Made by a program: the position numbers and the translations under genes. Below the pieces are notes generated by a model that worked only from the letters and a program-made list of their open reading frames with translations, was not told where the DNA came from and searched no databases. From positions 124,029 through 188,028 of the forward strand of contig DASWWS010000002.1 of the NCBI GenBank assembly GCA_036405895.1: 64,000 nt of DNA, written 5' to 3'. Numbering within the stretch: position 1 is the first letter of the stretch; the number at the start of each line of letters is the position of its first letter. Of the stretch, positions 9,651-59,019 are shown piece after piece. This stretch comes from Minisyncoccota bacterium (lineage in GTDB: Bacteria; Patescibacteriota; Minisyncoccia; Phycocordibacterales; UBA9973).

Positions 9651-9744
9651 CATTAAGTAAACAAATATGCAGTATGCCTCTGAGGCAATGGCGTGTAGCG
9701 TTTCGACCCCAGGGAGAGGCGGACAAGTGCTATACTGTACACAT

Positions 9745-16510: not shown

Positions 16511-16540
16511 CGTTAAACGGGAGATTTTTTATTATTTTAT
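16511..16540. terminator. Bidirectional terminator AAAAATCTCCCGTTAAACGGGAGATTTTTT
   Basis: Hairpin plus T-run between convergent rplT and the pilin gene. Confidence 0.8.
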
Positions 16541-16998: not shown

Positions 16999-16999
16999 A

Positions 17000-17524: not shown

Positions 17525-17545
17525 GTATCCTCAGTATATCAGCAA

Positions 17546-18016: not shown

Positions 18017-18033
18017 GTAAAGAGTATAGCAAA

Positions 18034-36173: not shown

Positions 36174-36596
36174 TTATTTCTTTGCTGCCTTAGGAAGCTT
36201 GGTACCGTAGAGTGAGCGGCTCTTTCGGCGCTTTTCAATACCCTGAGTATCAAGAACACCGCGTACTACGTGGTAGCGTACACCGATCAAGTCCTTTACG
36301 CGGCCTCCGCGGATCATTACCACTGAGTGTTCCTGAAGGTTGTGCCCTTCACCTGGGATGTAGCCGGTTACTTCCTGACCGTTGGTAAGGCGAATACGAG
36401 CAATTTTTCGAATCGCAGAGTTAGGCTTCTTTGGAGTAGTGGTAGTTACCTTTGTACACACGCCACGCTTAAACGGAGACGGATAGAATACCGGCTTGTT
36501 GTGGATGTGGTTCATGCCGCGCGACAAAGCAATCGCTTTTGGTTTGCGACGGACATTTACGCGGGGTCGTTTGATAAGTTGACTGATTCGAGCCAT
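36174..36596 (-). CDS. rpsL: 30S ribosomal protein S12
   Basis: Family match, including the conserved PKKPNSA region. Confidence 0.9.
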
Positions 36597-36635: not shown

Positions 36636-38564
36636 CTATACGCCAAATCGCTTTCGAAAGAGCCCGGCGCGGGTCGAAAACGGCGCTGTTACCGTACTGG
36701 TTCCCTGCCCTACTACCGCTCCTGGGTCGGAGACAACTGCATAAAAAGTGCCATCCGGCAGGTTAAGATACGCCCGCCCATATACTGAGGAGAGTGCCTT
36801 TACTACCGGAGTATTAGTCTCCTTTTCAAAGACCGTGATAAGCTTCCCGTCAATCGGAAGCTCGGCGGCTTTTGAAAGGAACACGCTCGCATAAGACCCG
36901 AATACTCCCACCGCTCGAAAGAGAGCAACAAGAACATATCCGGCACACAGCAAGAGTGAAACAAGGCTTGGGAAGAAAATGACATGCAATACTGACGCCA
37001 ATAAGCCGATGCCGAAAATGAGAAAGGCTCCATTGGTAAGCGCCACCTCATGATAGAGCAAGAACTCTTTAAATGAAGTAATAACAGGAGCAATGGGCGC
37101 ACCGCCCTGCACTGGAACATCAAATGGCTGTACTGGCTGGTTACCTCGAATAAGGATTGGTTGGTCGCTATATATAGTGTTGTACAAAAGTGGCGCTGCT
37201 GTAGCAAAGCCTAAGGGCGCATTCTGTGCGTCAATGCGAAGCGTGTATGCGCCGTCCGGAACTGCTGCGCTAAACGACCCGTCGCTTTGCGTAATAGCCA
37301 CAACCGCAACCGCACCGTAAGAATTCGTAAGAGTTACGTGCGCAAGCGCGACCGGGCGATGTGTTGCACTGTCATAGACTATCCCCCACGGCTTGACCGC
37401 AGGAGTAATGCCAAGCACCACCAGCAGGTTCTGCCATAAAAGATACGGGAAAAGAAGAAGCTCTTCAGCACCTGCAACTGGTACAACAATAAACAATGCA
37501 AGCGCGAGGGCGATAACAATGATCAGTCCAGCGATAGCAAGAGTACGGAGAAGAGTTTGAACAAAGGGGTCAGCCATCAATTCCGCCAGTGCGCGGTTCA
37601 TTGCATCAAACAGTGTCTGTATCCATGCAATCACCATGCGCAAAAATTCGATGACACGATCACGCGCTTCGGGGAGCTCTATGGTAACAACATTCGTAAT
37701 CGTATCAATGACCGGTGTAATGATAGGGATGCCGGGGTCAGCAGGAGCTGGCTCCTCTATTTCACCGCCGCCTGGGGTAACAGCCCCCGGAGTACCGGGG
37801 GTACCGGGGTTTTGAGAGGGCGGGGTGACAGGAGTGCCCGGTTCTGTTGGCTCTGTAGGATCTATTGGGTAGACAGGGTCAGGATATTCACTGTTTCCTC
37901 CGTCAATACACTCGGGGTCCTCATCATCAACAAATCCATCATTGTCATCGTCAGCGCTGTTGCTGCACTGCGTTACGGTTCCCTCTGGCTGGTCTGGACG
38001 GTAGCGCACAGGACGGTAGTCAGTACGCAAACAGTCGGCTCGAACGGTACAGTTAAATTCGATCCAACCGTAATTCTCGCTCCATGCATACCCAATATCG
38101 CCTCCCACGCCCCTAAAGTATCCCGCTCCATCAATCTGCACTTGCGGTGCATCATTGTTTTCAAACGGACCAAAATTAATCCAGCCGGTATTTTCTCCCC
38201 ATGCAAAACCGTACAGTGTACCGTTTCGGTCAATATCCACTTCAAAGCGCCCGTTCTCATCATTACATCCGCTCGAAGTACTGTCACAGCTCATCACGAT
38301 ATAGCCTGCAATCACCCCCCATGCAAAACCGTACAAGCCGTCATCGGTGATATGGATGTTGTAGTCTTCGGCTGTCGAGAATTTTCCGAAGTTAATTCGG
38401 TCGTCAGTATTGCCGTTGCCCACGTCCGGTGGATTCAAAAAATGAACGAGATAGTTTCCGTCTTCATACGGATCAATCGTACCGTCGTCTACGGCTGCAT
38501 GTGCGCTTGCGCTAAAAAATAATCCGAGAAGGATTAGAAGGAGAGATGCAAGGCGCAATTTCAT
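36636..38564 (-). CDS. Large cell-surface/membrane protein. Signal peptide, three 'G(F/Y)AWxENxGWIxF' repeats, Asp-rich Cys-containing segment, Pro/Thr linker, and a C-terminal multi-TM domain.
   Basis: Repeats GFAWGVIAGYIVM, GFAWGENTGWINF and GYAWSENYGWIEF. Start moved to MKLRLASLLLILLG. Shares the repeat type with 57535..59019. Confidence 0.55.
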   Translation of the reverse strand: MKLRLASLLLILLGLFFSASAHAAVDDGTIDPYEDGNYLVHFLNPPDVGNGNTDDRINFGKFSTAEDYNIHITDDGLYGFAWGVIAGYIVMSCDSTSSGCNDENGRFEVDIDRNGTLYGFAWGENTGWINFGPFENNDAPQVQIDGAGYFRGVGGDIGYAWSENYGWIEFNCTVRADCLRTDYRPVRYRPDQPEGTVTQCSNSADDDNDGFVDDEDPECIDGGNSEYPDPVYPIDPTEPTEPGTPVTPPSQNPGTPGTPGAVTPGGGEIEEPAPADPGIPIITPVIDTITNVVTIELPEARDRVIEFLRMVIAWIQTLFDAMNRALAELMADPFVQTLLRTLAIAGLIIVIALALALFIVVPVAGAEELLLFPYLLWQNLLVVLGITPAVKPWGIVYDSATHRPVALAHVTLTNSYGAVAVVAITQSDGSFSAAVPDGAYTLRIDAQNAPLGFATAAPLLYNTIYSDQPILIRGNQPVQPFDVPVQGGAPIAPVITSFKEFLLYHEVALTNGAFLIFGIGLLASVLHVIFFPSLVSLLLCAGYVLVALFRAVGVFGSYASVFLSKAAELPIDGKLITVFEKETNTPVVKALSSVYGRAYLNLPDGTFYAVVSDPGAVVGQGTSTVTAPFSTRAGLFRKRFGV

Positions 38565-38571
38565 AGAAGCA

Positions 38572-39213
38572 TTATAACGCAATGCCGGTAAGGAGTGAAT
38601 ACAACTTATACGCAAACGGTATTATTACGGTAAATTTGTATTCCAAAACAATAAGAAGAACAAGTGCGGGGAGACTGTATTGTTCGAGTACTCGCATTGT
38701 TGGGAGTGCGCGCCACGGCAACACCGATGAAAGAAATCGAAAGCCGTCCAGAGGTGCAAGTGGAATGCTATTGAAAATAGCAAGAACAATATTGATAATA
38801 ACAATGATGCTAAGAATTTCAATAACGGGAATAGAAACGTTGTGCGTTGCCATAAGTACACGAATCACTAAGCCGCACACGATTGCAACAGCAAAGTTTA
38901 CAGCGATGCCTGCAATAGCAACCCTTGCCTCGCTTTTTCTTCCATTCCGAAGATTCTCCGCTACATAGGGTACTGGCTTTGCCCAACCAACTACAAACCC
39001 GGTTGGTATTAAAAGAAGGGGTACCAATACAGATCCTACCCAATCAAGATGCTTTAACGGATTAAGGGTGATACGCCCCAGCATACGCGCCGTCGGGTCC
39101 CCTTCCCGCTCAGCAGCAAGCCCGTGCGCCACTTCATGCACAATGATGCTGGCGATTAAAATGAGGAAGTGAAAGACGGAAATTTGCCATGTCATGGCAC
39201 CAGTATACATCAA
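38572..39213 (-). CDS. Site-2 protease family (peptidase M50) zinc metalloprotease
   Basis: HEVAHG HExxH motif in a TM helix, plus the downstream LDG motif. Multi-TM protein. Confidence 0.75.
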   Translation of the reverse strand: MMYTGAMTWQISVFHFLILIASIIVHEVAHGLAAEREGDPTARMLGRITLNPLKHLDWVGSVLVPLLLIPTGFVVGWAKPVPYVAENLRNGRKSEARVAIAGIAVNFAVAIVCGLVIRVLMATHNVSIPVIEILSIIVIINIVLAIFNSIPLAPLDGFRFLSSVLPWRALPTMRVLEQYSLPALVLLIVLEYKFTVIIPFAYKLYSLLTGIAL

Positions 39214-39259
39214 AAAAGGAGTTGCATATCCCTATGCCCTATGGTACTATCTGTCCACT

Positions 39260-39505
39260 ATGGCAAAAGAATGCATGATTACAGGAAAGAGCTCTCAGAT
39301 GGGCGGAAAATACGCAAACCGCACCCGTGCGACTATCTTTACTCCGACGGGCAACCACCGCAAGTATGCAAACCTTCAAAAGAAGCGCGTATACGTGCCA
39401 GAAATCGATAAGACCCTTACTCTTACCGTTTCTACCAAAGGCCTTCGCACTATCCAAAAGAACGGTGCCTACAACGCTCTCCGAACAGCAGGCGTACTCA
39501 AATAA
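39260..39505 (+). CDS. rpmB: 50S ribosomal protein L28
   Basis: MAKECMITGKSSQMGGKYANRTRATIFTPTGN...VSTKGLRTIQKNG matches L28. The ORF-track upstream extension was rejected. Confidence 0.85.
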   Translation: MAKECMITGKSSQMGGKYANRTRATIFTPTGNHRKYANLQKKRVYVPEIDKTLTLTVSTKGLRTIQKNGAYNALRTAGVLK

Positions 39506-39806: not shown

Positions 39807-40670
39807 TTATTTCATATACCATTTTACCCCGTCGGTCTGAAGCGTTACTGTCCCCTTTTGCTGCGTACTGATGAAGGGGATAGAAAATTGCTCTAACCGA
39901 TTAGTCACTTCTTTTGCCGGGTGTCCGTAGCTATTAGCAACGCCAGCAGAAACAAGGCCGAGCATCGGACTGGTCGCGGTGAGAAATGCTGCACTGGTCG
40001 AAGTTTTTGACCCATGGTGTCCAAGTTTCAAAATGTCCACATCTACTGCCTTCGGATTTTCTGCTGAAAGAAAATGCTCAACAGATGACGGCGAGTCTCC
40101 TGTTAAGAGCATGCTCGTATCCCCCATCTGCAACCTTCCCACAACAGACGAGCTGTTTGTTTCCCAAAATGCCGTAGACCTGTCGGGAAACAGAATACTA
40201 AAATCTGTTTTTAGGAGTGGGTCGCTATCAAGCGCAATATTCATTCCGCGACGCGCATAGTATGCGGGAATAGTTCTCTTCTGCAGTTCTGCAAACAATG
40301 CTCGAAACTGCTCCGTATCAGTCACAGTATTGGGTGTAAGAAACAACCCCACATCATAGCGCGCGAATACAAGCGGAAGCCCTCCAATATGGTCGGCATC
40401 CGGGTGTGTGGCTATCACTACATCAATACTGCGGTCACCTCGCGGCATCACGCGCGCAAGCTCAGTCAATACTTTTGCATCCTTGCCCGCATCAACAAGT
40501 ATTTGCCTTCCGTTTTTTGCCTGTATCAAAAAACTGTCGCCTTGTCCCACGTTGAGCATATAGACCTCTGCCCGGCCGTCCTCTTTTTTCGGAATCATGA
40601 GAATACACCCTAAACCAAGACCGAGTGTGATGAGTATCATCGTTGCCAGTGTTTGAGGTTTACGGTTCAT
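39807..40670 (-). CDS. Membrane-anchored metallo-beta-lactamase-fold protein corresponding to the ComEC C-terminal nuclease domain
   Basis: LNVGQGDSFLI...HPDADHIGGL, the HxHxDH motif of the MBL fold, as found at the C-terminus of ComEC/Rec2. Confidence 0.7.
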   Translation of the reverse strand: MNRKPQTLATMILITLGLGLGCILMIPKKEDGRAEVYMLNVGQGDSFLIQAKNGRQILVDAGKDAKVLTELARVMPRGDRSIDVVIATHPDADHIGGLPLVFARYDVGLFLTPNTVTDTEQFRALFAELQKRTIPAYYARRGMNIALDSDPLLKTDFSILFPDRSTAFWETNSSSVVGRLQMGDTSMLLTGDSPSSVEHFLSAENPKAVDVDILKLGHHGSKTSTSAAFLTATSPMLGLVSAGVANSYGHPAKEVTNRLEQFSIPFISTQQKGTVTLQTDGVKWYMK

Positions 40671-41274
40671 GATAATAGTATATGATGAAAGTATGTATAC
40701 CGAAAAAACATTCACTATTGCTCCGTTTGCAAGTCTGTCCAAGAAATCAATAGAAGAGCACAAAAAGCTGTATGCGGGCTATGTAAAGAACGCAAACCTT
40801 GTTTTGGAAAAACTTGCTTCCTATAAGGATGACGAGTCAAAAGCATATGAGACCGCTGAGCTATATCGCCAATTTTCTTTTGAATTCAACGGCATGCGCA
40901 ATCACGAATGTTACTTTGCACTTCTTGATGGAAAGAGTGAGCTTGATAATGACAGCACACTTCTCGGTGCCATCAGTGCACAATGGGGCGATATGCAAAC
41001 ATTTAAAGACGCATTCCTCACACTTGCGCTTACCCGCGGTATCGGCTGGGCAATGCTCTCATACGACAAAGCGCAGAACAATTTAGTAATGCACTGGGTG
41101 GACGAACAGCACCTTGGACAGCTGCAAGGCACAACTGCAATCATCGCGCTCGATATGTGGGAGCACTCCTATGTTGCCGACTATCAGCCGTCCGGTAAAA
41201 AACAGTATGTAACAGACTTCATTGAGAATATGAACTGGTCTGCGGCAGAAGATTTTTTCGCACGCGCGAAATAA
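40669..41274 (+). CDS. sodA: Fe/Mn superoxide dismutase-like protein
   Basis: N-terminal His region IEEHKKLYAGYV. NGMRNHECYFALL matches the GGxxNHxxFW region. C-terminal DMWEHSYVADY...NW matches the DxWEHAYY signature. Confidence 0.7.
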   Translation: MIIVYDESMYTEKTFTIAPFASLSKKSIEEHKKLYAGYVKNANLVLEKLASYKDDESKAYETAELYRQFSFEFNGMRNHECYFALLDGKSELDNDSTLLGAISAQWGDMQTFKDAFLTLALTRGIGWAMLSYDKAQNNLVMHWVDEQHLGQLQGTTAIIALDMWEHSYVADYQPSGKKQYVTDFIENMNWSAAEDFFARAK

Positions 41275-42685
41275 ATTCCGAGAGCTCTCCCTTAAAGAGG
41301 GTGAGAAAAAATAAACAGTAGATTCCAACAACACTCCATGCCGAAAGGTCTGGAGTGTTATAGAGAGGAAGCAATGAAAACAATTGGAGTCCCTCTATCA
41401 CTACAGTTCCCACAAATGAAAGCAGTGCGCCTAACGCAGCCGCAACAGGAGCAATAAAAGAGCTTATGAGAACAACGGCTCCTCCTATCATAATCACGGG
41501 GGTAGCAACACCAAGAAAAATATTTGCTGGCACTGACGCAAGCGGAGCTATTCCTGCAAAATACATGAGATATGGCAGCATAAACAACGGCAGTAGCACC
41601 GCAAGCATCACAAGCTCCCGTATATTTACTATTGCGGTTTTTGGAATAAATGAAAACAGCATTTCGGCTTTTGGAATCACAGTGACCATACAAAGCGTTG
41701 CAAGAAATGAGAGATGAAAGCCGGGGTCGTAAAAAACCATTAGGGGCGACCAGAAGAAAAATACTATATAGCTAATAAACAGCGCTCGGAGGGCATTGTA
41801 TTCTTGAAGTCCCATCGTTGCCAAAAGTGCAATAGAACCCATCACTCCTGCACGCACAGCGGCAACCCCGGCCCCGCTGATAAGAACAAGAAAAATGATC
41901 CCAAAAAATGTCAGTACAAGGCGCACTCGAGTAGGAACACTGCGAAACATCACTCCAATAAATCCGCCCAAGAGGGTAATGTTGTAGCCTGAAAGGACTA
42001 ATACATGAAGCACTCCTGTAGTGCGAAAGAGGTCTTCTGTATCTTTTGGTATGCCGCCTTGGTACCCAAGCACCATACCAGAAACAATGCCGTCGACAGG
42101 AAATGAAATATGCCGGACAAATATATCAGAGAGCACATAGCGAGCAGTTGCAGCAACCCGTCGTGCGCTGAGAGCTCCAACGTGAACAAGAGCAATTTCG
42201 CTATCGTACATCACTGCAACAATACCTTTGCTTTCCAAATAATCCTTGTATGCAAAAAGCCTCCCTGTATCAGTAATAAAATCCTGTGGTTGCTCAACAA
42301 TACCGGTGATACTAACAATATCTCCGGGTACTACTGAAAGTGCTTCATATACAGTGACCTGTATTCTTTGGGAATAAGCCTCATCGCGTACTGTAAGGTT
42401 TGTACGGTCAAGCTCTCTGTTAACTGAGAGTACTGTTGCTTCAACTCTTCGCTCTCCAAACAATTCCAGCTGTAGCACCGTTTGCCGACTCCACACCAAA
42501 AGTCCTCCGATGATGCAAAAAATCACTACTGCACTTCCGGCTACCATCCCCTTTTTACTCGATACATACAGCCATGTGCACGCACCGAAAAATATACTAA
42601 TAAGGGCTAATTGTAAAAACGATACTCCAAACACATGGAACAATGCCGCACCGAAAGTAAGAAAAAGTATGGCAATCTCTACCAT
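41219..42685 (-). CDS. comEC: ComEC/Rec2 competence-domain membrane protein (DUF4131 plus the Competence domain, without an MBL domain)
   Basis: 488 aa polytopic protein. Conserved GAGVAAVRAGVMG region of the ComEC channel domain. Confidence 0.7.
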   Translation of the reverse strand: MVEIAILFLTFGAALFHVFGVSFLQLALISIFFGACTWLYVSSKKGMVAGSAVVIFCIIGGLLVWSRQTVLQLELFGERRVEATVLSVNRELDRTNLTVRDEAYSQRIQVTVYEALSVVPGDIVSITGIVEQPQDFITDTGRLFAYKDYLESKGIVAVMYDSEIALVHVGALSARRVAATARYVLSDIFVRHISFPVDGIVSGMVLGYQGGIPKDTEDLFRTTGVLHVLVLSGYNITLLGGFIGVMFRSVPTRVRLVLTFFGIIFLVLISGAGVAAVRAGVMGSIALLATMGLQEYNALRALFISYIVFFFWSPLMVFYDPGFHLSFLATLCMVTVIPKAEMLFSFIPKTAIVNIRELVMLAVLLPLFMLPYLMYFAGIAPLASVPANIFLGVATPVIMIGGAVVLISSFIAPVAAALGALLSFVGTVVIEGLQLFSLLPLYNTPDLSAWSVVGIYCLFFLTLFKGELSEFISRVRKNLLPQTSSYSQ

Positions 42686-47679: not shown

Positions 47680-49434
47680 TTATACCTCTTTCCACGAATC
47701 AATATTCCATGATCCGCTCGGTCCGCTCGAAAAATTGAGGTTTGCAATTCCACTCTCATAGGTAACAGAGCTGCCTCCAGAAATACTAATGGCATAGCCC
47801 GTCACTTGTTTTGCAGTCACCCCTCCTGTAAGGCTAATAGTTCCGTTCTGGGCGACAAGGATAACCGCCCCTGATCCTCCGTCTTGGGTGATTGCATTGC
47901 TTGCAGTCGACTTCGAAACAAGCAGAATGTAGCTGCCTGTTGTACCGGAACCATTCGCCGTCCCGCCCCCCGAAAGAGCAATTCTACCGTTTACCAAGAC
48001 CGCATCGCTTGCTGTTCCATAGGCGCTCGAGAGCCGTATTGTTGAGCCTCCACTAATCGTCAGTGTCCCCGTTACCCAGAGCGTTCCGTCAAGTATTACT
48101 GTTGACCCACCCGTTACAGTAAGATTGCCAACAATTTTTCTCGGCCCCATATTGACCGTAGTCCCGCTTCCGACAGTAATATTTCCGGTAGTAGTTGTTC
48201 CGAGAACGGCTTTTTCTTCCCATGAAGCAATTGCATCTTCAGATACCGGCCACTCCCCTTCAGCATCAACCGCTCCAGTTGTCGTGCAGGCCTTATTGTT
48301 TCCAGTTCCGCTTTGGCAATGAATGGTTCCACCCACAATGGAATCGTTTACTGTGTACGCCCGCGCATCTCCACCAATGCCCCCTCCTTTTAAGTTATCA
48401 ATCAGTCCGGTGCTTCCCCCCATAAATACGCCAAAATATCCATCCAAACCGTTTGGCGTGGTTGCACTAAAGCTTCCGCCAAATACCCCGACCTTCGCCA
48501 TGCCATTTGCATAGGTGCTGTTTGTCGCACCAAGCGTATAGTACGAGCCATAGGTTGAGCTGGTATCAAGCACTATCCAATACGTGCTCCCTGCATTGAG
48601 TGTAGGAGCGGCTCCGAACGGAACAGAGATGTATGAATACCCGGTTCCTATGTCCTCATGGTCAAGCGTTGCAGAGGCAATTGTTGTTCCCGGATTTCCA
48701 CCACTATTTGCAGTGATGCGCACGGTGATATCTCCCATCCACGCCGCTGAACTTTTTTTAATATATAGCCGGACATTTGAAAGCGTATTGGATTCGGACA
48801 CCTGAAAACTCTGCGCCATGTCGTCGGTGTAGTTCGTCTGCCAGTCCACGCTCCCACCAAAGCGTATCTCTGCCGGAGGAACAGCAGCACCGTCATTTTG
48901 CTGGTTGGCAGTCGGGCTTGAAACAGTAGCGCTCACTGCAGTGCCGCTGATACTGTTTGAGCCGCTGTTGTTTGCGGTGATAGGGCCATTGGAATAGACG
49001 TTACCGACAATGCTCCCGCTCTGAAGCGATATGCCTCCGCGGCCCGCTTGCAGTCCGTATTGAAATGATGCACCCGCGCCCTGCGAAACGGTGACAGAAA
49101 CGCTTCGATTGCGGTCTTTTGCATCCCCCACAGAAGTAATCTGCTTTTCCGTAAGATTGACCGTTGTTACCGTAGTAGTTGTTTCAGCGGTACCTAAAAC
49201 AAGCGTCTCGCTTGCCGAAAGCTGCTTGCCGGTGCGCAGTCGGTACAACACATCCTCAACCCCGCTCTCGGCAATAAAATAGCTTTGCTTTGCCTGAAGC
49301 GAGTCTTCCGCGATGCGGTTTGCGTGCAGCGCCGGCACCACCAGCCCCAATGCAATAGAAAGAGAGAGTGCGACAAAGAGCACCATGGTGATAATCAGAA
49401 CGCTTCCTTGATTATACGAGTTTCTTTTTTTCAT
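47680..49434 (-). CDS. Large pilus-associated protein (putative minor pilin or tip adhesin) with an N-terminal TM anchor and Gly/Thr/Ser-rich body
   Basis: Last gene of the pilB-pilC-pseudopilin operon. N-terminus LIITMVLFVALSLSIALGLVVPALHANRIAEDSLQAKQSYFIAESGVED resembles PilX-type N-termini. Confidence 0.5.
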   Translation of the reverse strand: MKKRNSYNQGSVLIITMVLFVALSLSIALGLVVPALHANRIAEDSLQAKQSYFIAESGVEDVLYRLRTGKQLSASETLVLGTAETTTTVTTVNLTEKQITSVGDAKDRNRSVSVTVSQGAGASFQYGLQAGRGGISLQSGSIVGNVYSNGPITANNSGSNSISGTAVSATVSSPTANQQNDGAAVPPAEIRFGGSVDWQTNYTDDMAQSFQVSESNTLSNVRLYIKKSSAAWMGDITVRITANSGGNPGTTIASATLDHEDIGTGYSYISVPFGAAPTLNAGSTYWIVLDTSSTYGSYYTLGATNSTYANGMAKVGVFGGSFSATTPNGLDGYFGVFMGGSTGLIDNLKGGGIGGDARAYTVNDSIVGGTIHCQSGTGNNKACTTTGAVDAEGEWPVSEDAIASWEEKAVLGTTTTGNITVGSGTTVNMGPRKIVGNLTVTGGSTVILDGTLWVTGTLTISGGSTIRLSSAYGTASDAVLVNGRIALSGGGTANGSGTTGSYILLVSKSTASNAITQDGGSGAVILVAQNGTISLTGGVTAKQVTGYAISISGGSSVTYESGIANLNFSSGPSGSWNIDSWKEV

Positions 49435-49435
49435 A

Positions 49436-49921
49436 CTACTGCGTACGCAACAAAGCGGTCGAATAAAATGACGCAGTCCTGATAACCCCTCCGGTTGCCG
49501 TAAGCGTAAGCTCCACCTTCACTCCTTCCCCAACTGGAGTGGTGATGCGGCGAAAGACCATATTCGTTACAGCTACCTGGCTGGTAGAAAGAATTCCTGT
49601 TGTACTGTTTTCCGTTATAGTAGCTGCGCCATTTGAAACAGCAAACGCAACCGTATCTCCCCCGCTTGCAAGCGTAAGTGTTCCAGGGTGAGTGCCAAAC
49701 GTACCCGTTGAAATGCTTTCGGCGTCGCGCACTTCGCGCGTAATGCGCTCAATGATAAGTTCGCCGTTGTTCTGAAGTCTTCGGAATCCTTGTGCGCTTG
49801 CGTACGTGCGCATCAACACCACCAATGAATGCACCAAAAGAACCGAAATCATGGCAAAAAGCGCGACATAGACCAATAGTTCGAGCAATGAATATCCTTT
49901 GTTTGTATTTTTTATTTTCAT
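49436..49921 (-). CDS. pseudopilin (prepilin-type N-terminus)
   Basis: KGYSLLELLVYVALFAMISVLLV. Placed in the operon. Confidence 0.65.
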   Translation of the reverse strand: MKIKNTNKGYSLLELLVYVALFAMISVLLVHSLVVLMRTYASAQGFRRLQNNGELIIERITREVRDAESISTGTFGTHPGTLTLASGGDTVAFAVSNGAATITENSTTGILSTSQVAVTNMVFRRITTPVGEGVKVELTLTATGGVIRTASFYSTALLRTQ

Positions 49922-49922
49922 A

Positions 49923-50390
49923 CTATTGCCTAATGTTTGCTATATAAAATGCCAAACTTTTTGTTTGCAAGCCGGTTGATGCAGACCAGGAAACAGTTAC
50001 CGTCACAAGCTTTGTTCCCGAATCAGTTGTTCCGCTTGCCGCAATGTCGTCCGTTGCATTTCGGGAAACGTTCGTTACGACAATGCTTCTGGTAAAGCGG
50101 TCAATTACAACAGGAGTTGTGGTAAATACCCACGCGCTTCCATTGTATGACAAATAGTACGTCGTGCCCGGAGTAAGCGAGCTGATGCTGCTCCATGAGG
50201 TATCGCGAATCGCCTTTGTAGCTTCTGCCCCCTCTTCAAGAAGAAATGACGCTTGTGTTCGCTCAAGCGCACGCTGGGAGACTTCTACTGTGTTCTGTAT
50301 TGAACCAATCAATAAAATAAGCACCACCGCAATAACAGACGATGCGATAATCACTTCTATAAGAAAAAATCCGCGTTGTGAAGAATGCAT
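49923..50390 (-). CDS. pseudopilin (prepilin-type N-terminus)
   Basis: QRGFFLIEVIIASSVIAVVLILLIG. Start moved to MHSSQRG. Confidence 0.6.
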   Translation of the reverse strand: MHSSQRGFFLIEVIIASSVIAVVLILLIGSIQNTVEVSQRALERTQASFLLEEGAEATKAIRDTSWSSISSLTPGTTYYLSYNGSAWVFTTTPVVIDRFTRSIVVTNVSRNATDDIAASGTTDSGTKLVTVTVSWSASTGLQTKSLAFYIANIRQ

Positions 50391-50391
50391 A

Positions 50392-50841
50392 TTAATTTCG
50401 TGCGACAGTACCAGTGGCGGTAACAGTGATAGTGCGGAGTGTCCCGCTTGGCAATTGCAATTGTAGTGTACCATGATGCGCAGTTGTTCCGCGCAGTCGG
50501 TCAAACGTTATTGTTGACCCCCCGCCGGAAAGAGCAACTGTTCCAAGCACTACAGGTGATTCGTATAAAAAGATTTGATTGGTGGGAGCTGCGCTTTGAT
50601 ATGTTGCCCCGCGAAACAAAATTGCGCGGTCGGCCTCCAGCCGAACGCTGTAGTTCGTGTTCTCGGTCCCCGCAAGCGTTTTTGCGCGCGCCTCATTGAT
50701 GACAGTAAGCACTGCATTGGTCGTATTTTGCAGCGCTTGCTCTCGTCTGAATCGAATAATCGGCAAAGATGCAATACCCATCAATACTCCAACAATAGTC
50801 AGGACAATCAAAAGCTCAATAATGGTAAACCCTTTTTTCAT
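50392..50841 (-). CDS. pseudopilin, GspH/FimT-like
   Basis: MKKGFTIIELLIVLTIVGVLMGIA prepilin motif. Confidence 0.75.
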   Translation of the reverse strand: MKKGFTIIELLIVLTIVGVLMGIASLPIIRFRREQALQNTTNAVLTVINEARAKTLAGTENTNYSVRLEADRAILFRGATYQSAAPTNQIFLYESPVVLGTVALSGGGSTITFDRLRGTTAHHGTLQLQLPSGTLRTITVTATGTVARN

Positions 50842-50842
50842 A

Positions 50843-52048
50843 CTATTGAATACTGTCCATCAGTGAATACATAGGCGAAAGCATTGAAATGGCAAAAAAT
50901 CCCACCGCGCCTCCGATAAAGATCATCAGTACAGGCTCGATGATAGTAGAGAGATCCTTTGTCTTTGCATCAACCTCCGCTTCGTAAAATACCGCAATAT
51001 CGAGCAGCATGTTTGCAAGCTTCCCCGTCTCTTCTCCGACCGCTACCATTTCGCCAACCATCACCGGATAAAGATTGGTGTGTCGCTGAAGCACGCTCGA
51101 CATCGTTTCACCTTTTTCCACGCGCTCTTCAATTTCGGCAAGCACGCTCTTATAATAGCTGTTTTGCAGCACTTCTTTGGTGATGCCGATTGCGCGCGAA
51201 ATGCTCACTCCTGCAACCAAGAGAGATGAGAGCGTGCGGGCAGTACGGGCTGCATTCACCTCTTGTACCAATACGCCAACCACCGGCACGCGAGTGCTCA
51301 TATAGTCTGAAAACTTCTGCACTGCCGGGCGCTTAAACGCAAAGTAGCCTCCCACCACTATCACTGCAATGCCCAGGAGAAGAAATGCAATATGGTTTGA
51401 AATCATATCCGAAACCCATACCACAATGCGCGTTGAAGTCGGCAGGTCAACATTGAGTTCTTTGAATGTTTTTGTCAGTACTGGCACAACATAAATAAAC
51501 ATGAGTATTCCGATAATGAATATAGCGACAATAATAATCGCCGGGTACATGAGGGCACTTTTTATTTTTCGGTTGAGGTTGTAGCTTTTTTCAAGATTCC
51601 CGCCGACTTCCATTAATGCCTCAGGCAATCCTCCCGACTCTTCCCCTGCTTTCACCATTGCCACAAAAAGGCTGGAGAAAATAGCCGGGTACTTGGAAAG
51701 TCCCGCTGAAAAGGTCTCCCCATTGTCGATACTCGCAATCAGCGACTCAAGAATTGTTTTAAAATAATTGTTTGTTGTCTGTTTTTTCAATACAACAAGG
51801 GCTCGTGCAAGCGGAAGGCCCGCGCGAAGCATGCCGGCAAGGTTTTTTGTGAAAATGATTTTCTCGCTGAGTTTTACGCGCTTGAATATGCCGTCGAGCG
51901 TCAGCGTGCGCTTCTTTTTTTCTGTCACCGTAATCGGTGTAAGGCCGGTCTCGCGCAAGGTAATAATCGCTTCGGTCTTAGTAGGCTCCTCAATCACTCC
52001 CTCAACCAATGCTCCGGTTGTGTTTCGCGCCGTGTAGGTAAATAGCAT
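50843..52048 (-). CDS. pilC: type IV pilus assembly platform protein PilC / GspF family
   Basis: Two T2SSF domains. Conserved GEESGxL region. Confidence 0.9.
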   Translation of the reverse strand: MLFTYTARNTTGALVEGVIEEPTKTEAIITLRETGLTPITVTEKKKRTLTLDGIFKRVKLSEKIIFTKNLAGMLRAGLPLARALVVLKKQTTNNYFKTILESLIASIDNGETFSAGLSKYPAIFSSLFVAMVKAGEESGGLPEALMEVGGNLEKSYNLNRKIKSALMYPAIIIVAIFIIGILMFIYVVPVLTKTFKELNVDLPTSTRIVVWVSDMISNHIAFLLLGIAVIVVGGYFAFKRPAVQKFSDYMSTRVPVVGVLVQEVNAARTARTLSSLLVAGVSISRAIGITKEVLQNSYYKSVLAEIEERVEKGETMSSVLQRHTNLYPVMVGEMVAVGEETGKLANMLLDIAVFYEAEVDAKTKDLSTIIEPVLMIFIGGAVGFFAISMLSPMYSLMDSIQ

Positions 52049-52116
52049 AGGATAAGTGTAACAGATTTATAATAAAAAAAGCGCTCCCCTGGGGAGCGCA
52101 AAGTGCAAAAAAATAA

Positions 52117-52548
52117 TTATTTGAAGAGTGTTCGATACTTTGTCGGACTGGTTTCGTTTTCAAGCTCAAGCGAGGTTGCTGTCAAAGTGATAATTCCGTA
52201 CGTAATGGTGCTATTAGAAGCTTTCAGTACAATTTTAGTATCGTTTGCAGTCGGCTCCCAGGTGCCATTAAAACTTCCGCTTCCTCCAAATTCAACATAG
52301 GAAAATGTTTTGTCGGACTTAAAGGTGTAGGTATCCTTTTTTTCTTCCACGGACAGAGGGTCGTTAACACGAGTGCCGGAAACAATTTGCGTCGCAGAAA
52401 CAGGTGTCCACGTTTTTACCAAGAGCAGTGCTTTTGCACTAAGGCCGGGTTGTTCTGTTTTCGGAGTAGGGTTGTCTTTTTTGCAAGAAACAAAAGAAGA
52501 ACTGATAATCATTACCAATCCCGCTAAATAGAGAGAAATCTTTTTCAT
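52117..52548 (-). CDS. Lipoprotein, hypothetical (within the pilus operon)
   Basis: Signal peptide with lipobox SFVSC. Confidence 0.5.
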   Translation of the reverse strand: MKKISLYLAGLVMIISSSFVSCKKDNPTPKTEQPGLSAKALLLVKTWTPVSATQIVSGTRVNDPLSVEEKKDTYTFKSDKTFSYVEFGGSGSFNGTWEPTANDTKIVLKASNSTITYGIITLTATSLELENETSPTKYRTLFK

Positions 52549-52627
52549 TGTTTTTATTTTTATGTGAAAGATAAGTGATTTTCAATACTATGCACCCTAT
52601 GCAATATTTTGTCAACCCTTTGGAGCA

Positions 52628-54373
52628 CTATTCGCTGACAACTCGCAATACGTCATCAATGGTTGTTTTTCCTTGAGCAGCCTGGAAAATGCCATCTTCA
52701 AGCATTGTCATCATCCCCTCTTTTTTTGCTTGTGCTTCCACTTCGTCCGCGGTGCCATTGCGTAAAATAATTTCCTTGATTGTCGGCGTGATTTTCATTA
52801 CCTCATGAATGCCGATACGGCCCTTGTATCCGTCTTCGCTTTCTTCTGAGGCCTTTGGTTTATAAAAGGGAATCTTCTCCCATGGCATACCCTTTTCAAT
52901 TATGTGCTCAGCTTCCAAAAACTTTCTCATTCGATCAAGGTCAAGCGAGTGCCCGAGCGTTGAAACTTCCACTGCGGTAAGAAAATATGTTTCTTTAGCA
53001 GCAGTCAGACGGCGCACCAAGCGCTGTGCCAAAATGGCTTTTGCGGTCGAAACGATAAGAAACGGCTCAACGCCCATATCAATCAATCGAGGGATAGCGC
53101 CAGCGGCTGAGCTTGTGTGGATAGTGGAGAGCACCAAGTGCCCGGTAAGGGCCGCATTCACTGCCAAGTCTGCAGTTTCGCCATCGCGCACCTCTCCAAC
53201 CATGATGATGTTGGGGTCTTGTCGCAAAAGCGCACGCAAGCCGTTGGCAAAGGTCATACCGATGTCAGACTTTACTTGCGTTTGATTGATGCGCGGCATC
53301 TGATACTCGATCGGGTCTTCAACGGTTGAGATGTTTACCTCCGGCGTATTTAAAATATCGAGCAATGTATAGAGCGTAGTAGTTTTTCCGCTTCCAGTCG
53401 GCCCTGACGCCAAGATAATGCCTGAGTGCTGGCGAAGTGCTTCGTGGATTGCTTCGAGCCCGCTTCCATGAAAGCCTAAGCCTTCAAGCGTAAAGCCGTG
53501 CGTGCTTTCGCGCAAAATACGGACTACTGCCTTTTCGCCATAGTATGTTGGAATGGTCGAGACACGAAACGATACGGGCGTCTCATCAAGCACCATTTTA
53601 AAGCGCCCATCCTGCGGCAAGCGCTTCTCGTCGAGCTTAAGACTCGAGAGCACTTTGATTCGCGCCGTAATTGCCGGAGCTGCACCCTTTGGCAAAGTCA
53701 TTGCGTCATGAAGAATGCCATCGATACGGTAGCGGATTATCATTTCATTTTCTCCGGGCTCCATGTGGATGTCAGACGCGCCCTGCATGATAGCGTGCGA
53801 AATCAATGAGTCCACAATCTTGATTACCGGCAAGTCTTCAGCAAGGGCCTTGAGGTCTCCCACTGATGCGTCCGCATTCACTTGCGGAACATTCTTCAGC
53901 GACAATGCTTCAGTTTGAATAATAGAGTCGAACTCTGCTTGGAGGCTCTTTCGATACTGCTGGAGCACGGCTTTGATAGTTTCGGTATCTGTCAGGCGCG
54001 GCAAGATGCGGAGCTGCGTCTTTTTTTTGATAAAGTCGATAGCGGGCAAGTTATCGATGTCGAGCATTGCAACCTCCAAATCGCTTCCCGACTTTTTATA
54101 CGCAACAATATTGTAGCGGCGCGCGATTGATTCAGGAATCAGCGCAAGCGTGTCCGGGTCGAGACGCTCTTTTGTCAGCCCAATAAATGGAATACCCAAT
54201 ACATATGCCTCTAATCGCTTGATCTCGCTTTCTTTCACTTTTCCCGCATTCAAAAGGAAGTCTGAAAGCGACTGATCTTTATTTTCTCGAGCATCGTAGG
54301 ATTCAATGTCGGCAAGAGATGCGATATTTGCATCAAGTACAAGATTGCGGAGTTTTATTTGATCGATCACCAT
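52628..54373 (-). CDS. pilB: type IV pilus assembly ATPase PilB / GspE family
   Basis: N-terminal GSPII_E_N domain, Walker A SGPTGSGKTTTLY, Asp and His boxes. Confidence 0.9.
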   Translation of the reverse strand: MVIDQIKLRNLVLDANIASLADIESYDARENKDQSLSDFLLNAGKVKESEIKRLEAYVLGIPFIGLTKERLDPDTLALIPESIARRYNIVAYKKSGSDLEVAMLDIDNLPAIDFIKKKTQLRILPRLTDTETIKAVLQQYRKSLQAEFDSIIQTEALSLKNVPQVNADASVGDLKALAEDLPVIKIVDSLISHAIMQGASDIHMEPGENEMIIRYRIDGILHDAMTLPKGAAPAITARIKVLSSLKLDEKRLPQDGRFKMVLDETPVSFRVSTIPTYYGEKAVVRILRESTHGFTLEGLGFHGSGLEAIHEALRQHSGIILASGPTGSGKTTTLYTLLDILNTPEVNISTVEDPIEYQMPRINQTQVKSDIGMTFANGLRALLRQDPNIIMVGEVRDGETADLAVNAALTGHLVLSTIHTSSAAGAIPRLIDMGVEPFLIVSTAKAILAQRLVRRLTAAKETYFLTAVEVSTLGHSLDLDRMRKFLEAEHIIEKGMPWEKIPFYKPKASEESEDGYKGRIGIHEVMKITPTIKEIILRNGTADEVEAQAKKEGMMTMLEDGIFQAAQGKTTIDDVLRVVSE

Positions 54374-54470
54374 TGCTTGTAGTATAGCAACAACACTGCA
54401 AGTATGCGCAATAAAAAAACCACTTCCGTGTTGAAAGTGGTTTTTTTATTTTTTCTACAATGCCCGCAAA

Positions 54471-55667
54471 TTATGGATTAAGAGTAATGTCGATAATAGT
54501 GGCACTTCTGTCGATATAGTAGTCAAAATTTGCTTTTATACCTCCAAAAAGTCCTCCACGCCATGACATACCGTACAAGTATGCATAGAGGTCAACTGTG
54601 TCTCCCGGCTGAAGTACTATCGTTTTTTCAAAGCTGAAATTATACGGAACATCTCCAAATGACTTCCATTTATTCACCTGACTCAAAGAATATTGTGCGT
54701 AGAAATAATTATCCACTGGAACATCTTCGCCTGGTTGGTTGTTCCAGATATCGTAAAATCCTGATCCTACTGGAGCGAGAGGGTAATGGTCATTGTTGAT
54801 TTTTACAAAGAAATTTGTATTTCCAAATGCTATCGCACTGTTATACCTATTCTTAAGCCCCATAGAACCTCTTGCACTGATTTTGATCGAGTATGTTCCT
54901 GCCTCTTGAACTGTTAAGAGACGTCCCTTGTCGAGAGCAAACTCTGTTTTACTGATACCAGGAAGAGTATCAATAATAACACCCTCAGGCCTACTGTTAT
55001 CAATACCTATTTTGCCAATATAAGGAACAGTAACAAATTTCTGTGTCCATGCATGGTTAGGGCTTGGTCCATCTATTTCAACCCACTGTCGAAGAGTAGG
55101 GAAGGTAAAATCTTGACGCTTATATGATGGAGCTACTGAATAGAAACGCTTGAGAGTAGGGGCGTTACAAGTGCCGTCTGAAGAACGGGTATGACCCTGC
55201 GGGATAGTATACTGGTGCCCAGAAATGTTTGAACACAAGTCATCAGTACACAAACCAATAACTCCGCTACCATCCGCACATAATCGCGAGTTATCCGGAT
55301 TGGCGACAAATTGATTTTGTATATAATCTGCTGCTGCAAGATTACCACTGATAGCCGCATCGGTCACAGTACTCATAGGAACACTACCGAGCTGAAGGGT
55401 GCTTGTAGTATCAAGAGGGGTTCCTCCTCGTACTGTCCCCCGAAGCGAAAGGTCTTGCTCGAATGAAGCGTTTTGCGAAACAATAAAATTATTAACAGAG
55501 AGTCCTCCTGTCTTTATTTGAGCTGGGCCCACATGGATTGGTATACCCGTATTGCTTCCATAGGGAATGCTTGCGGGTGCTGTCCACTGAGCAAGAGTAC
55601 TTGCAGCAAATGCGAGCGTTAGACCGAAAGCGATATATTTAAGGTTGGTGAGGAGTGTTTTTTTCAT
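54471..55667 (-). CDS. Secreted paralog family member 1 (398 aa)
   Basis: Signal peptide MKKTLLTNLKYIAFG shared with the two downstream paralogs. GGLSV motif. LCADGSGVIGLC Cys pair. Confidence 0.55.
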   Translation of the reverse strand: MKKTLLTNLKYIAFGLTLAFAASTLAQWTAPASIPYGSNTGIPIHVGPAQIKTGGLSVNNFIVSQNASFEQDLSLRGTVRGGTPLDTTSTLQLGSVPMSTVTDAAISGNLAAADYIQNQFVANPDNSRLCADGSGVIGLCTDDLCSNISGHQYTIPQGHTRSSDGTCNAPTLKRFYSVAPSYKRQDFTFPTLRQWVEIDGPSPNHAWTQKFVTVPYIGKIGIDNSRPEGVIIDTLPGISKTEFALDKGRLLTVQEAGTYSIKISARGSMGLKNRYNSAIAFGNTNFFVKINNDHYPLAPVGSGFYDIWNNQPGEDVPVDNYFYAQYSLSQVNKWKSFGDVPYNFSFEKTIVLQPGDTVDLYAYLYGMSWRGGLFGGIKANFDYYIDRSATIIDITLNP

Positions 55668-55671
55668 ATAA

Positions 55672-56445: not shown

Positions 56446-56449
56446 ATAA

Positions 56450-57187: not shown

Positions 57188-57188
57188 A

Positions 57189-57521
57189 TTACTGGTTAAA
57201 ACTGTTAAGCATTTGTAATCGATCACTTGAAGTTGTCGTTGTCGGCGTAGAAGTAGATCCAAGAAGTTGTCCTTGTGCATACGTGTTCTGTACGTCTTCA
57301 TTTACGGGAAGAGAAGATTCTCTCAACCGCTCGAGGACACCTTCCGGGGTCTTCTCTTTTTGCTTTGCAATAAAATACCATACCCCCAAAAGAATCAACA
57401 CAATAACCAAAATAATAGCAATCATGGTGCGCTGTTTTTTCTGGTCGTAATCACTGGGAACACCGTGCTCTTCAAGAACGCGAGGGTTATAGTTATTGTT
57501 TTGTGCAACAGATGTGGGCAT
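57189..57521 (-). CDS. Small single-TM protein
   Basis: 110 aa, central TM helix, Thr-rich C-terminus. Confidence 0.4.
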   Translation of the reverse strand: MPTSVAQNNNYNPRVLEEHGVPSDYDQKKQRTMIAIILVIVLILLGVWYFIAKQKEKTPEGVLERLRESSLPVNEDVQNTYAQGQLLGSTSTPTTTTSSDRLQMLNSFNQ

Positions 57522-57534
57522 GATGATAAATATA

Positions 57535-59019
57535 CTAGAATTCTATGAATATTGGCTTCTTTTTCTCGATTGCAACTGTAGCCGCCGCTTCGCTTCCACA
57601 TTGTACCGTGACAGAGGTTATTGCGGGAGGAACTATAATGTCGCTCATTATGCTCCATATACCACTGTTGCCTTGCTGCACCAGGTTTACAGTACGAGTG
57701 CTCGCACCCCATGTAATATTACAACTTGCGCCTGCACCGATGCGAGAAATGATAATTCGCTGTCGACTTCCTGGGGTGGTACCAACCGGACAAGCAGAGA
57801 GGCCGCCAGCCGGAATAGGAGAACCATCAGGACAGTATGGATCATGGGCAACTCCATCACATCCCGTACAATTTGGACCAGGATCAGGAAGAACAGTAAT
57901 GGTTGTTTTTACACACATTCCTCCTTCGAGAATATAGCCGGTAGGAATCGTCTGTTGTGCACCGTCGATATTAGGACACATATCGTCTTGAACACAATTA
58001 GCACCTGATGCCGTGTATCCGTACGGGATGGTTGTCTGCGTACCGTCTATGTTTGCACACATATCAGGCGGTGTTATTTCACAACTAAAGCTTGTACTCA
58101 CCGCATCTGAGAAAAATGGTGCAGTTGCAGGACTTCGGGAGTGCGCCCATGCACCATAGCTCGCTCCTGGAATGCCGGCGGTAGTATAGCTCGTTGCGGC
58201 CCCTTCCCAACAGCTGTCTCCTGGATTATTACAAGGACCTGCACCTTCTTCCCATCCGTTTGCAAGATTATTAACACGGAAACTGTACCAATCGGCACCC
58301 GATACTGGAGCAACTGTTACAGTAATTTGATCTCCTGGAGCTGGACATGATGCAGTAATAGCAGGCACCGGAGGGCGGCACTGGAATGAAGGGTCAACAG
58401 TGGGCGCTCCCTGTGACCACACAGTCCCAGCCGGACAAGAGACACTTCCTACAGATCCATTCACACTTGTCCACCCTATCACTTCAGACCCCCATAGAGA
58501 GCCAGTGAGTGTGCGTGTCCCACCACTATCGGGCCCCAGTGTAAGGCCGTACCCGCTTCCCGAAAGGGAAAGAAAGCCATCCCAGTCTCCCAAATAAGCA
58601 TTATTTGCCAAGGCACCACTACACCCTGAAGCAAAAACAGAACAAGCGCGAGCCCATCCTTTTATTCCATATGATCCGTCAGGACCTGGATATGCCAAGT
58701 CTACATAGGCGCCTTGCGTGCAGCCACTCGTCGGACATCCAGCCGGAGAAAAAGTGATCCATCCGATATTTGAAGACCACGCGGTCCCTGAAATAGCTCC
58801 ACTTGCCGGATCAACAGAAACGCCATAGTCAGAACCGGTACAGGAGGAGGTATTGGTTGGGTCAGTACAGTTATTGAGCGATATCCACCCGATATTTGAA
58901 GACCACATATTCCCACTTGCATTGCTATTGGTACCAGCGCGCAATGATGATGCAGCAAAGAGCGCAAGAGTGGTCATAGTGGCGAGAGCGATGAGAAGTA
59001 CTTTGGTGCGAGTCTTCAT
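57535..59019 (-). CDS. Large secreted Cys-rich protein with 'AWSSNIGWI(S/T)(L/F)' repeats and 'C-x-NIDG-x-QTTIP-x-GY' repeats
   Basis: Start moved to MKTRTKVLLIALATMTT, a signal peptide. Repeats MWSSNIGWISL, AWSSNIGWITF, MCANIDGTQTTIPYGY and MCPNIDGAQQTIPTGY seen directly. Confidence 0.55.
   Translation of the reverse strand: MKTRTKVLLIALATMTTLALFAASSLRAGTNSNASGNMWSSNIGWISLNNCTDPTNTSSCTGSDYGVSVDPASGAISGTAWSSNIGWITFSPAGCPTSGCTQGAYVDLAYPGPDGSYGIKGWARACSVFASGCSGALANNAYLGDWDGFLSLSGSGYGLTLGPDSGGTRTLTGSLWGSEVIGWTSVNGSVGSVSCPAGTVWSQGAPTVDPSFQCRPPVPAITASCPAPGDQITVTVAPVSGADWYSFRVNNLANGWEEGAGPCNNPGDSCWEGAATSYTTAGIPGASYGAWAHSRSPATAPFFSDAVSTSFSCEITPPDMCANIDGTQTTIPYGYTASGANCVQDDMCPNIDGAQQTIPTGYILEGGMCVKTTITVLPDPGPNCTGCDGVAHDPYCPDGSPIPAGGLSACPVGTTPGSRQRIIISRIGAGASCNITWGASTRTVNLVQQGNSGIWSIMSDIIVPPAITSVTVQCGSEAAATVAIEKKKPIFIEF

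Follow-up and report, generated by a model that had tools for sequence, protein, structure and literature searches.

The gene on the minus strand at positions 36636 to 38564 of a 64,000-nucleotide (nt) stretch of contig DASWWS010000002.1, the whole of which is referred to here as the window, encodes a protein of 642 amino acids (aa) that is a real, conserved surface protein of the Candidate Phyla Radiation (CPR), assembled from two undescribed and very common modules. One is an N-terminal domain made of GWI repeats, the other a C-terminal membrane module of about 310 aa, hereafter the C-module. The protein is a modular anchored surface protein, a known general kind, and its value lies mainly in the definition of the two modules and in a possible connection of the predicted cytoplasmic domains of the C-module to CheY-like regulators. 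The CPR, or Patescibacteria, account for about a quarter of bacterial diversity by one estimate and are ultra-small bacteria that live attached to other cells, which makes surface proteins central to their biology. Most of these proteins are annotated as "hypothetical", and the one described here brings to light two building blocks that recur thousands of times and lack a curated model. Defining them would improve the annotation of thousands of proteins and provide targets for structural and binding studies. A previous reading of the window, based on its sequence only, had described this gene as encoding a giant surface protein possibly processed by the M50 protease encoded next to it; its observations were mostly correct and its interpretation half right.

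Architecture and distribution of the two modules

The open reading frame (ORF) of the target starts with an ATG and gives the same 642-aa product as the NCBI model, the length announced by the sequence-only reading, for which the word "giant" was overstated. An alternative TTG start (659 aa, overlapping the upstream gene) is backed by no homologue and was rejected. Fourteen full-length homologues, sharing 24-84% identity with the target, keep the gene model and the architecture. The ORF of the M50 neighbour reaches position 39213, the homologues and the NCBI model placing its true start at 39195. Both products were deposited at NCBI from a Candidatus Paceibacterota metagenome-assembled genome (MAG).

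The N-terminus, MKLRLASLLLILLGLFFSASAHA followed by an A, looks like a Sec signal peptide, with a cleavage site read off the sequence; hydropathy and the alignment of the homologues agree with the signal peptide proposed earlier. It is followed by the GWI-repeat domain, in which the motif G-[YF]-A-W-[GS]-E-N-x-G-W-I-x-F recurs three times per domain with a period of about 29-41 aa, the GW being invariant and the W, E, N and G-W core nearly so at 25% overall identity. The three repeats previously reported are present, two of them strong and the first degenerate; over the whole window, the five instances counted at that time are replaced by four strong and two weak ones when searched with the repeat hidden Markov model (HMM). 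Only two ORFs of the window carry the domain, the target (E 9e-51) and the 494-aa protein at 57535-59019, which scores E 2e-17 with an HMM built without it. The kinship formerly noticed between the two loci is thus confirmed, the first protein of the type IV pilus cluster containing the same repeat domain.

The AlphaFold2 model of the GWI domain, obtained from the window domain and 120 homologues (121 sequences), is all-beta, with a predicted local distance difference test (pLDDT) of 92.9 and a predicted template modelling score (pTM) of 0.88. A sequence search of the PDB with the GWI profile gave nothing below E 0.4 and a Foldseek comparison of the model with the PDB gave no significant match. 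The GWI domain of the window protein had no Pfam or NCBIfam match, not even at E<=10 for Pfam, and a borderline ChW match is limited to a few homologues, so that no known described domain was found to correspond to the repeat. Neither module was found described in the literature on CPR with carboxypeptidase-regulatory, site-2 protease or surface families.

A census made with the profile of the N-terminal domain (7,475 candidates scored, 90%-identity clusters counted) found the GWI domain in at least 6,338 protein clusters, most of them short secreted proteins and almost all lacking any Pfam domain and named "hypothetical". Their hosts are Patescibacteria, Peregrinibacteria and some Planctomycetota MAGs, and the occasional fusion partners are PG_binding_1, TSP3, fn3 and ChW-scoring segments. 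Two of the proteins from Planctomycetota MAGs (P0079 and P0102), from which it follows that the GWI module is not strictly CPR-specific, have an Asp-rich, dockerin-like C-terminal tail ending in …CPDGW[EQ]LK. The neighbourhoods of three stand-alone GWI proteins are unrelated, with no common theme and no pilus genes. A split-gene ("Rosetta stone") arrangement was considered for one stand-alone GWI protein (P0049), which precedes a CarboxypepD_reg protein, and was rejected: the latter is devoid of the C-module and has one external sandwich and a single C-terminal transmembrane (TM) helix.

Between the two modules, the Asp/Cys-rich stretch and the Pro/Thr linker mentioned in the sequence-only reading are both recovered. 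The former matches the NCBIfam repeat NF033662 with E 1.1e-5 and 25 bits, below the 41-bit protein-level cutoff, and is found in zero to two copies among homologues; the latter varies in length and sequence. The six Cys of the ectodomain make three local pairs.

The distribution of the C-module was established by an exhaustive HMMER profile search over 1.84 billion representatives, which replaced an earlier word-indexed search that had returned 14 proteins only, hydrophobic words saturating the candidates. At E<=1e-3 the profile matches 11,129 representatives, a number that falls to 4,872 at E<=1e-10 and to 2,215 at E<=1e-30. Of the best 150 matches listed, nearly all cover the whole profile, at the C-terminus or a few dozen residues from it, in proteins of 271-3,040 aa, the exceptions being three giant proteins (3,865-6,305 aa) matched only in many partial stretches. 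Among the top C-module representatives scanned, 67 of 148 start with a GWI domain; NHL propellers, Big_5/Big_7, Calx-beta, SpaA and fn3, which are typical extracellular passengers, are found in others. The genomic loci discussed below are the best 80 of 371 encoding stretches in species-representative genomes, nearly all labelled as CPR, several as "bacterium" or "uncultured bacterium" and one short contig as Gammaproteobacteria. No NCBIfam model matches the C-module in the target and six family members. From its position and its passengers, the C-module is, as far as sequences tell, a generic C-terminal anchor for surface proteins.

Only four hydrophobic stretches follow the signal peptide according to hydropathy, and AlphaFold2 (window protein and 103 homologues, 104 aligned sequences; pLDDT 80.7) models one long helix and one hairpin. 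The "at least eight" TM helices of the initial description do not stand, and the C-terminal half most likely crosses the membrane three times. The carboxypeptidase-regulatory-like segment is confirmed: the sole Pfam match in the target is CarboxypepD_reg (PF13620) at aa 394-447 (E 1.5e-8, above cutoff), and some homologues show a second PF13620 stretch. No solved structure fits the whole C-module, the best closely superposing chains aligning over 71-76 residues, which correspond to one sandwich.

Across the 104 aligned sequences, Lys/Arg residues cluster, for every helix, at the end next to a beta-sandwich. The ten-residue segment that joins H2 to sandwich 1 contains on average 3.6 Lys/Arg and 0.08 Asp/Glu; the approach to H3 together with its start has about 6 Lys/Arg, the exit of H4 has 2.1 and the H3-H4 loop 0.3, while the middle of H2 has almost none and the linker side carries a net charge of about -20. 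Moreover, the second half of H2 (H2b) is only 14-16 residues long in one subfamily, too short for a membrane span. Considering that the N-terminal part is exported, the positive-inside rule predicts a single crossing by H2, and both beta-sandwiches most likely lie in the cytoplasm. Such a location fits the CheY-like genes that recur beside paralogues, described below.

Table 1. Positions (in the 64,000-nt window) of the two minus-strand genes of the finding, of the parts of the target protein and of related features
Feature	Position	Strand	Description
Target gene	36636..38564	-	642-aa modular surface protein, NCBI HEY0980345.1, "carboxypeptidase regulatory-like domain-containing protein"
Signal peptide	38496..38564	-	aa 1-23, MKLRLASLLLILLGLFFSASAHA; hydrophobic segment, N-terminal pattern kept in all homologues
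GWI-repeat domain	38010..38495	-	aa 24-185; three beta-hairpin repeats, closed by Cys pairs 93/100 and 172/178
Repeat 1 (degenerate)	38295..38339	-	aa 76-90, LYGFAWGVIAGYIVM; repeat HMM independent E-value 0.18; aligns with canonical repeats of homologues
Repeat 2	38172..38216	-	aa 117-131, LYGFAWGENTGWINF; repeat HMM independent E-value 5.9e-11; nearly invariant in the family
Repeat 3	38055..38096	-	aa 157-170, IGYAWSENYGWIEF; repeat HMM independent E-value 6.5e-11
Acidic double-disulfide-type knot	37905..37985	-	aa 194-220 (C200...DDDNDGFVDDEDPEC219)
Pro/Thr-rich acidic linker	37674..37898	-	aa 223-297; 24% Pro, 15% Thr, no Lys or Arg
Amphipathic helix H1	37572..37673	-	aa 298-331; AlphaFold2 model helix 8-41; clade-specific, kept only in homologues P0002-P0009
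Long hydrophobic helix H2	37416..37568	-	aa 333-383; continuous 51-residue AlphaFold2 helix; one predicted crossing and a juxtamembrane segment
Beta-sandwich 1 (CarboxypepD_reg / transthyretin-like)	37107..37385	-	aa 394-486; predicted cytoplasmic
TM helical hairpin H3/H4	36912..37076	-	aa 497-530 and 534-551, 3-residue loop (AlphaFold2 model 207-240, 244-261); also from hydropathy
Beta-sandwich 2	36639..36887	-	aa 560-642, C-terminal, predicted cytoplasmic; AlphaFold2 strands 270-351, pLDDT 85-93
M50 site-2-protease family gene	38572..39195	-	neighbour, 207 aa, NCBI HEY0980346.1, "site-2 protease family protein"
rpsL (S12)	36174..36596	-	neighbour 39 nt downstream of the target, followed by rpsG and fusA; synteny recurs in homologue loci
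Second GWI-domain protein	57535..59019	-	494 aa, NCBI HEY0980368.1, hypothetical; heads the type IV pilus cluster; without the C-terminal membrane module
PilB	52628-54373		type IV pilus cluster
PilC	50843-52048		type IV pilus cluster
Pseudopilins	49439-50859	-	two prepilin-like genes downstream of PilC
Tandem pilin genes	16540-18085	-	three, canonical GFTLIELLVV N-terminus

Gene neighbourhoods of the C-module and of the M50 protease

As stated in the sequence-only reading, an M50 gene lies directly upstream of the target on the same strand, 7 nt separating its stop codon from the target ATG, and rpmB is divergently oriented upstream of it. No terminator-like site was found between M50, the target and rpsL, and the target is probably co-transcribed with the str operon, from which constitutive expression would follow. 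A sigma-70-like site (TTCACT-17-TATAAT) on the minus strand at 38571-38599 shares positions with the M50 stop codon and stops 7 nt short of the target ATG, and would, if real, give a nearly leaderless target transcript; promoter-like sites occur in the region at chance frequency (7 found, 5.5 expected) and no internal promoter is claimed. The M50 product belongs to the M50/site-2 protease family (PF02163, E 7.6e-15, 55.3 bits for a cutoff of 27.2), with an active site (H20, E21 and H24 of HExxH, and NxxPxxxLDG) conserved in 14 sequences. Its best PDB match is MJ0392 (3b4r, E 5.9e-11), and it is related to RseP and SpoIVFB.

The association of M50 with the target was evaluated in both directions. 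Starting from the 80 C-module loci, an M50 gene is found immediately upstream in 21 and 2-3.5 kb upstream in 5, nearly all of these 26 loci lying in the block ComEC-SOD-MBL-rpmB(-)-M50-X-rpsL-rpsG-fusA (SOD, superoxide dismutase; MBL, metallo-beta-lactamase). The remaining loci, about 54 of the 80, are elsewhere with no M50 near, one of them being a second copy within one MAG (L006 vs L014). For the reverse direction, a metagenome scan with the M50 alignment provided 80 loci (40-55% identity), 64 of them with enough downstream sequence: rpsL directly follows M50 in 47 and is located 0.3-2.5 kb further on in about a dozen, and the M50-rpsL gap contains a C-module gene in only 3. In other loci the occupants of this gap are Peptidase_S74 fibre-like proteins, lone response regulators, or a histidine kinase accompanied by a response regulator. 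These counts and the varied content of the gap indicate that the conserved units are rpmB<>M50-rpsL and X-rpsL, X filling a variable insertion slot. The adjacency of M50 and the target is therefore most likely explained by genome or operon layout rather than by a protease-substrate relationship. Concerning the conservation and co-occurrence initially asked about, the neighbourhood recurs in homologues down to 26% identity and is neither reciprocal nor family-wide, and the co-occurrence of the two genes seen in 26 of the 80 C-module loci is to be set against the loci far from any M50 and the reverse count. Recognising this layout averts a tempting and unsupported annotation of the target as a protease substrate.

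The arrangement rpmB(-)<>M50-rpsL-rpsG-fusA (38572-39505 and 36174-36596 in the window; loci L089-L168) is itself conserved in Paceibacteria-type genomes. In the window, ComEC is split (39807-42685) into a Competence/DUF4131 membrane part at 41219-42685 (-) and a metallo-beta-lactamase part at 39807-40763 (-), with an Fe/Mn superoxide dismutase gene between them at 40669-41274 (+), an arrangement seen in many related loci.

Outside the str block, the gene most often found beside the C-module, once the neighbours of the 80 loci are clustered, encodes a stand-alone response regulator with a receiver domain. A CheY-like gene of this kind (~130 aa, PF00072 Response_reg) lies at 400 nt or less from the C-module gene in 14 of the 80 loci (L010, L013, L023, L024, L052, L056, L059, L063, L066, L068, L071, L073, L074 and L076), for about 1 expected by chance, and the remainder of the 828 kb has only 4 more ORFs of this type. 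These loci span at least 7 distinct arrangements and response-regulator subtypes. The window itself contains no such stand-alone regulator. In 14 loci (L006, L007, L011, L039, L041, L042, L043, L052, L066, L067, L080 and others), a large signal-peptide protein with the N-terminal motif DPGETLDPxCxPGxxNC…SQWTT adjoins the C-module gene; the one member scanned, that of L006, has a Peptidase_S74 (endosialidase chaperone) domain, and the group resembles tail fibres.

The window also harbours, at 47680-59019, a complete set of type IV pilus genes, and a separate major-pilin array. The prepilin motif (G|F-T-L-I-E) was found only in the ORFs at 16540-18085 and 49439-50859, neither in the target nor in the protein at 57535-59019. 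Between the latter and PilB, three consecutive secreted proteins (398, 257 and 283 aa; 54471-57301, minus strand) have no Pfam match and no prepilin motif; the N-terminus MKKTLLTNLKYIAFG is common to two of them, and two have in common a C-terminal Cys-ending domain of ~90 aa (…VGTNVVIRNS.NANMY.IELP…LNC). Finally, a tRNA-Ile with the anticodon TAT (UAU) is located at 9577-9651 (+); such a tRNA is not common among bacteria, where AUA is usually read by a lysidine-modified CAU tRNA.

Proposed function and alternative readings

The conserved signal peptide and the C-terminal membrane module bear out the earlier description of a secreted, membrane-anchored surface protein. We propose, with moderate confidence, that it is an anchored protein of the envelope or cell surface whose GWI domain binds a conserved ligand, the M50 neighbour being incidental. 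After Sec export from the Paceibacterota cell, this assembly of two independent and widely reused modules would expose the ~160-aa GWI domain, its three beta-hairpin repeats forming a closed all-beta fold of barrel-like shape that disulfides cross-link, and after it an acidic, calcium-site-like knot with a disulfide bond and a Pro/Thr stalk of ~75 residues. The C-module would hold it in the membrane through a stop-transfer helix, a transthyretin-like sandwich, a two-helix hairpin running through the membrane and back, and a second sandwich. A conserved ligand is suggested by the near-invariant W/E/N/G-W core, the ChW-like character of the repeat, the PG_binding_1 fusions and the position in a housekeeping operon; it would most likely be a glycan or a cell-wall polymer, bound as ChW or choline-binding repeats bind theirs, and the protein may tie or present it at a fixed distance, the length of the stalk, from the membrane.

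Several points weigh against this proposal. The nature of the ligand is deduced from residue conservation, fusion partners and a borderline ChW match (24 vs 22 bits) in a few homologues. In the clade of the window protein itself, most of the Lys/Arg flanks are lost (the segment after H2 is LGITPAVKPW) and H2 is strongly hydrophobic in its two halves, which could suit a form with four TM helices and external sandwiches; the topology assigned to the window protein consequently depends on its homologues and on the helix modelled by AlphaFold2. For transthyretin-like and CarboxypepD_reg domains, an extracytoplasmic location is the usual one, and the PDB structure matches agree with it. Lastly, the pairing of M50 and the target persists at deep divergence in Paceibacteria (21 adjacent and 5 near, of 80).

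If both halves of H2 spanned the membrane, the resulting four TM helices would leave the sandwiches outside, as the membrane-proximal base of a wholly extracellular stalk. The H2 halves of the window protein, long and very hydrophobic (Kyte-Doolittle values of 3.25 and 1.8) with weak Lys/Arg flanks, are compatible with such an arrangement, and an unrelated neighbour protein in locus L084 has a comparable sandwich outside, before a C-terminal TM helix. We nevertheless judge this topology rather unlikely, since across the 104 sequences it would leave almost no Lys/Arg inside and about 8 per protein outside, H2b is too short to span in one subfamily, AlphaFold2 models H2 as one continuous helix with no hairpin, and the sandwiches are devoid of Cys whereas every ectodomain module has Cys pairs. 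The topology also bears on the possibility that the M50 protease cuts the target within the membrane, releasing the ectodomain or freeing the cytoplasmic part by regulated intramembrane proteolysis. The 7-nt spacing on the same strand, the recurrence of the pair at 26% identity and in 21 (plus 5 near) of the 80 loci, the intact HExxH...LDG active site and a conserved Pro/Arg motif in the H2b of the family (P-x-R-L-W), which could destabilise the helix, would all suit a substrate. However, the processing that the sequence-only reading suggested from adjacency is very unlikely when 47 of 64 M50 genes run straight into rpsL and 3 are followed by a C-module gene in the gap, which also hosts unrelated genes, and when about 54 of 80 C-module genes are away from any M50. 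Moreover, characterised site-2 protease substrates (RseA, RsiW, FtsL and signal peptides, for the proteases RseP and RasP) have an N-in/C-out orientation, and the anchor helix of the target is predicted to be the opposite, with the N-side of H2 outside and its C-side inside, on account of the signal peptide, the ectodomain disulfides and the charge bias.

The ligand could also belong to another cell. Two papers (PMC9894109, PMC6744442) describe CPR bacteria as relying on pili and surface proteins for host contact, and the GWI domain might accordingly recognise the surface of the host bacterium rather than its own envelope, in an episymbiotic attachment possibly involving type IV pili. The second GWI protein of the window heads a type IV pilus cluster, PilB, PilC or pilins are encoded no more than about 3 kb away in 7 of the 80 C-module loci, and two loci (L010 and L030) place the C-module gene with PilM/N/O and response regulators. 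On the other hand, 5 of the 7 pilus-linked loci represent one orthologous arrangement with unrelated genes in between, the three stand-alone GWI proteins are in unrelated neighbourhoods, and a repeat that is near-invariant across very distant lineages and found in a housekeeping operon position favours a conserved ligand over a host-specific one, leaving the host-adhesin function unlikely, if still worth keeping in view. A more speculative idea, which we consider distinctly improbable, sees the C-module as a CPR-specific transmembrane coupling device whose sandwiches would dock CheY-like regulators and, possibly through them, the type IV pilus machinery, so that binding by the ectodomain, here the GWI domain, would be linked to cell behaviour, or the link would run the opposite way. 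It is left open in view of the predicted inner location of the sandwiches, the receiver-gene neighbours in 14 of the 80 loci and the several loci where a C-module gene occurs together with response regulators and PilM/N/O or PilB/C. Should this inner location and the CheY-like link prove true, they would represent a new way for minimal cells to connect their surface to their interior, and the coupling module a new receptor class in bacteria without classical chemoreceptors.

Comparison with known systems

Returning to the anchored, ligand-binding surface protein that we favour, each of its parts can be compared with a described family. The target shares with RseA/RseP and RsiW/RasP the encoding of a membrane protein beside an M50 protease with an intact active site; it differs from them by its predicted N-out/C-in anchor, the lack of an attached sigma factor and an adjacency that is neither reciprocal nor family-wide (26 of 80 forward, 3 of 64 reverse). 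It belongs to CarboxypepD_reg by its Pfam gathering score and its transthyretin-like beta-sandwich fold, but two such domains are interleaved here with membrane helices in a fixed C-terminal unit of ~310 aa, and their predicted cytoplasmic placement is unusual for the fold. The knot aligns to positions 1-27 of the 32-residue acidic double-disulfide repeat NF033662, a repeat whose own function is uncharacterised. Judged from this alignment, the similarity is real at the level of the repeat; the target has a single copy at 25 bits, short of the 41 bits that the model asks of multi-repeat proteins.

As a conserved C-terminal element placed behind variable passengers, in otherwise unrelated secreted proteins of one lineage, the C-module recalls the sorting and anchor signals LPXTG/sortase, PGF-CTERM/archaeosortase and GlyGly-CTERM/rhombosortase. 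These signals are tails of 20-40 aa removed by a dedicated enzyme, whereas the C-module has ~310 aa, two folded domains and three membrane helices. The target and six family members had no NCBIfam match at E<=1 to the sorting-signal models (LPXTG, PEP-CTERM, GlyGly-CTERM and PGF-CTERM), and no dedicated enzyme partner appeared among the clustered neighbours of the 80 loci.

ChW repeats (PF07538) have ~50 aa and an invariant GW, are thought to act in triplets and are found in secreted or wall-associated proteins, their ligand being unknown (PMC5817068). GWI repeats are also short, extracellular, built around an invariant Gly-Trp and present in three per domain, and three homologues (P0054, P0079 and P0102) score 23.5-24.4 bits against ChW (cutoff 22), on the segment G-x-x-W-x-E-N-I-G-W-I-S-L. 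The window protein, however, has no ChW match even at E<=10 and thus does not reach the 22-bit gathering score, and the GWI repeats differ by their shorter period (about 29-41 aa), their flanking motif and their hosts, which are CPR, Peregrinibacteria and some Planctomycetota MAGs rather than Firmicutes and Actinobacteria. A GWI domain that scores with ChW, compared by tblastn with 50,697 phage records, a set expected to contain ChW endolysins, returned no match. Judged on sequence features, ChW is the closest known analogue of the GWI repeat, the link between the two being marginal and short of membership.

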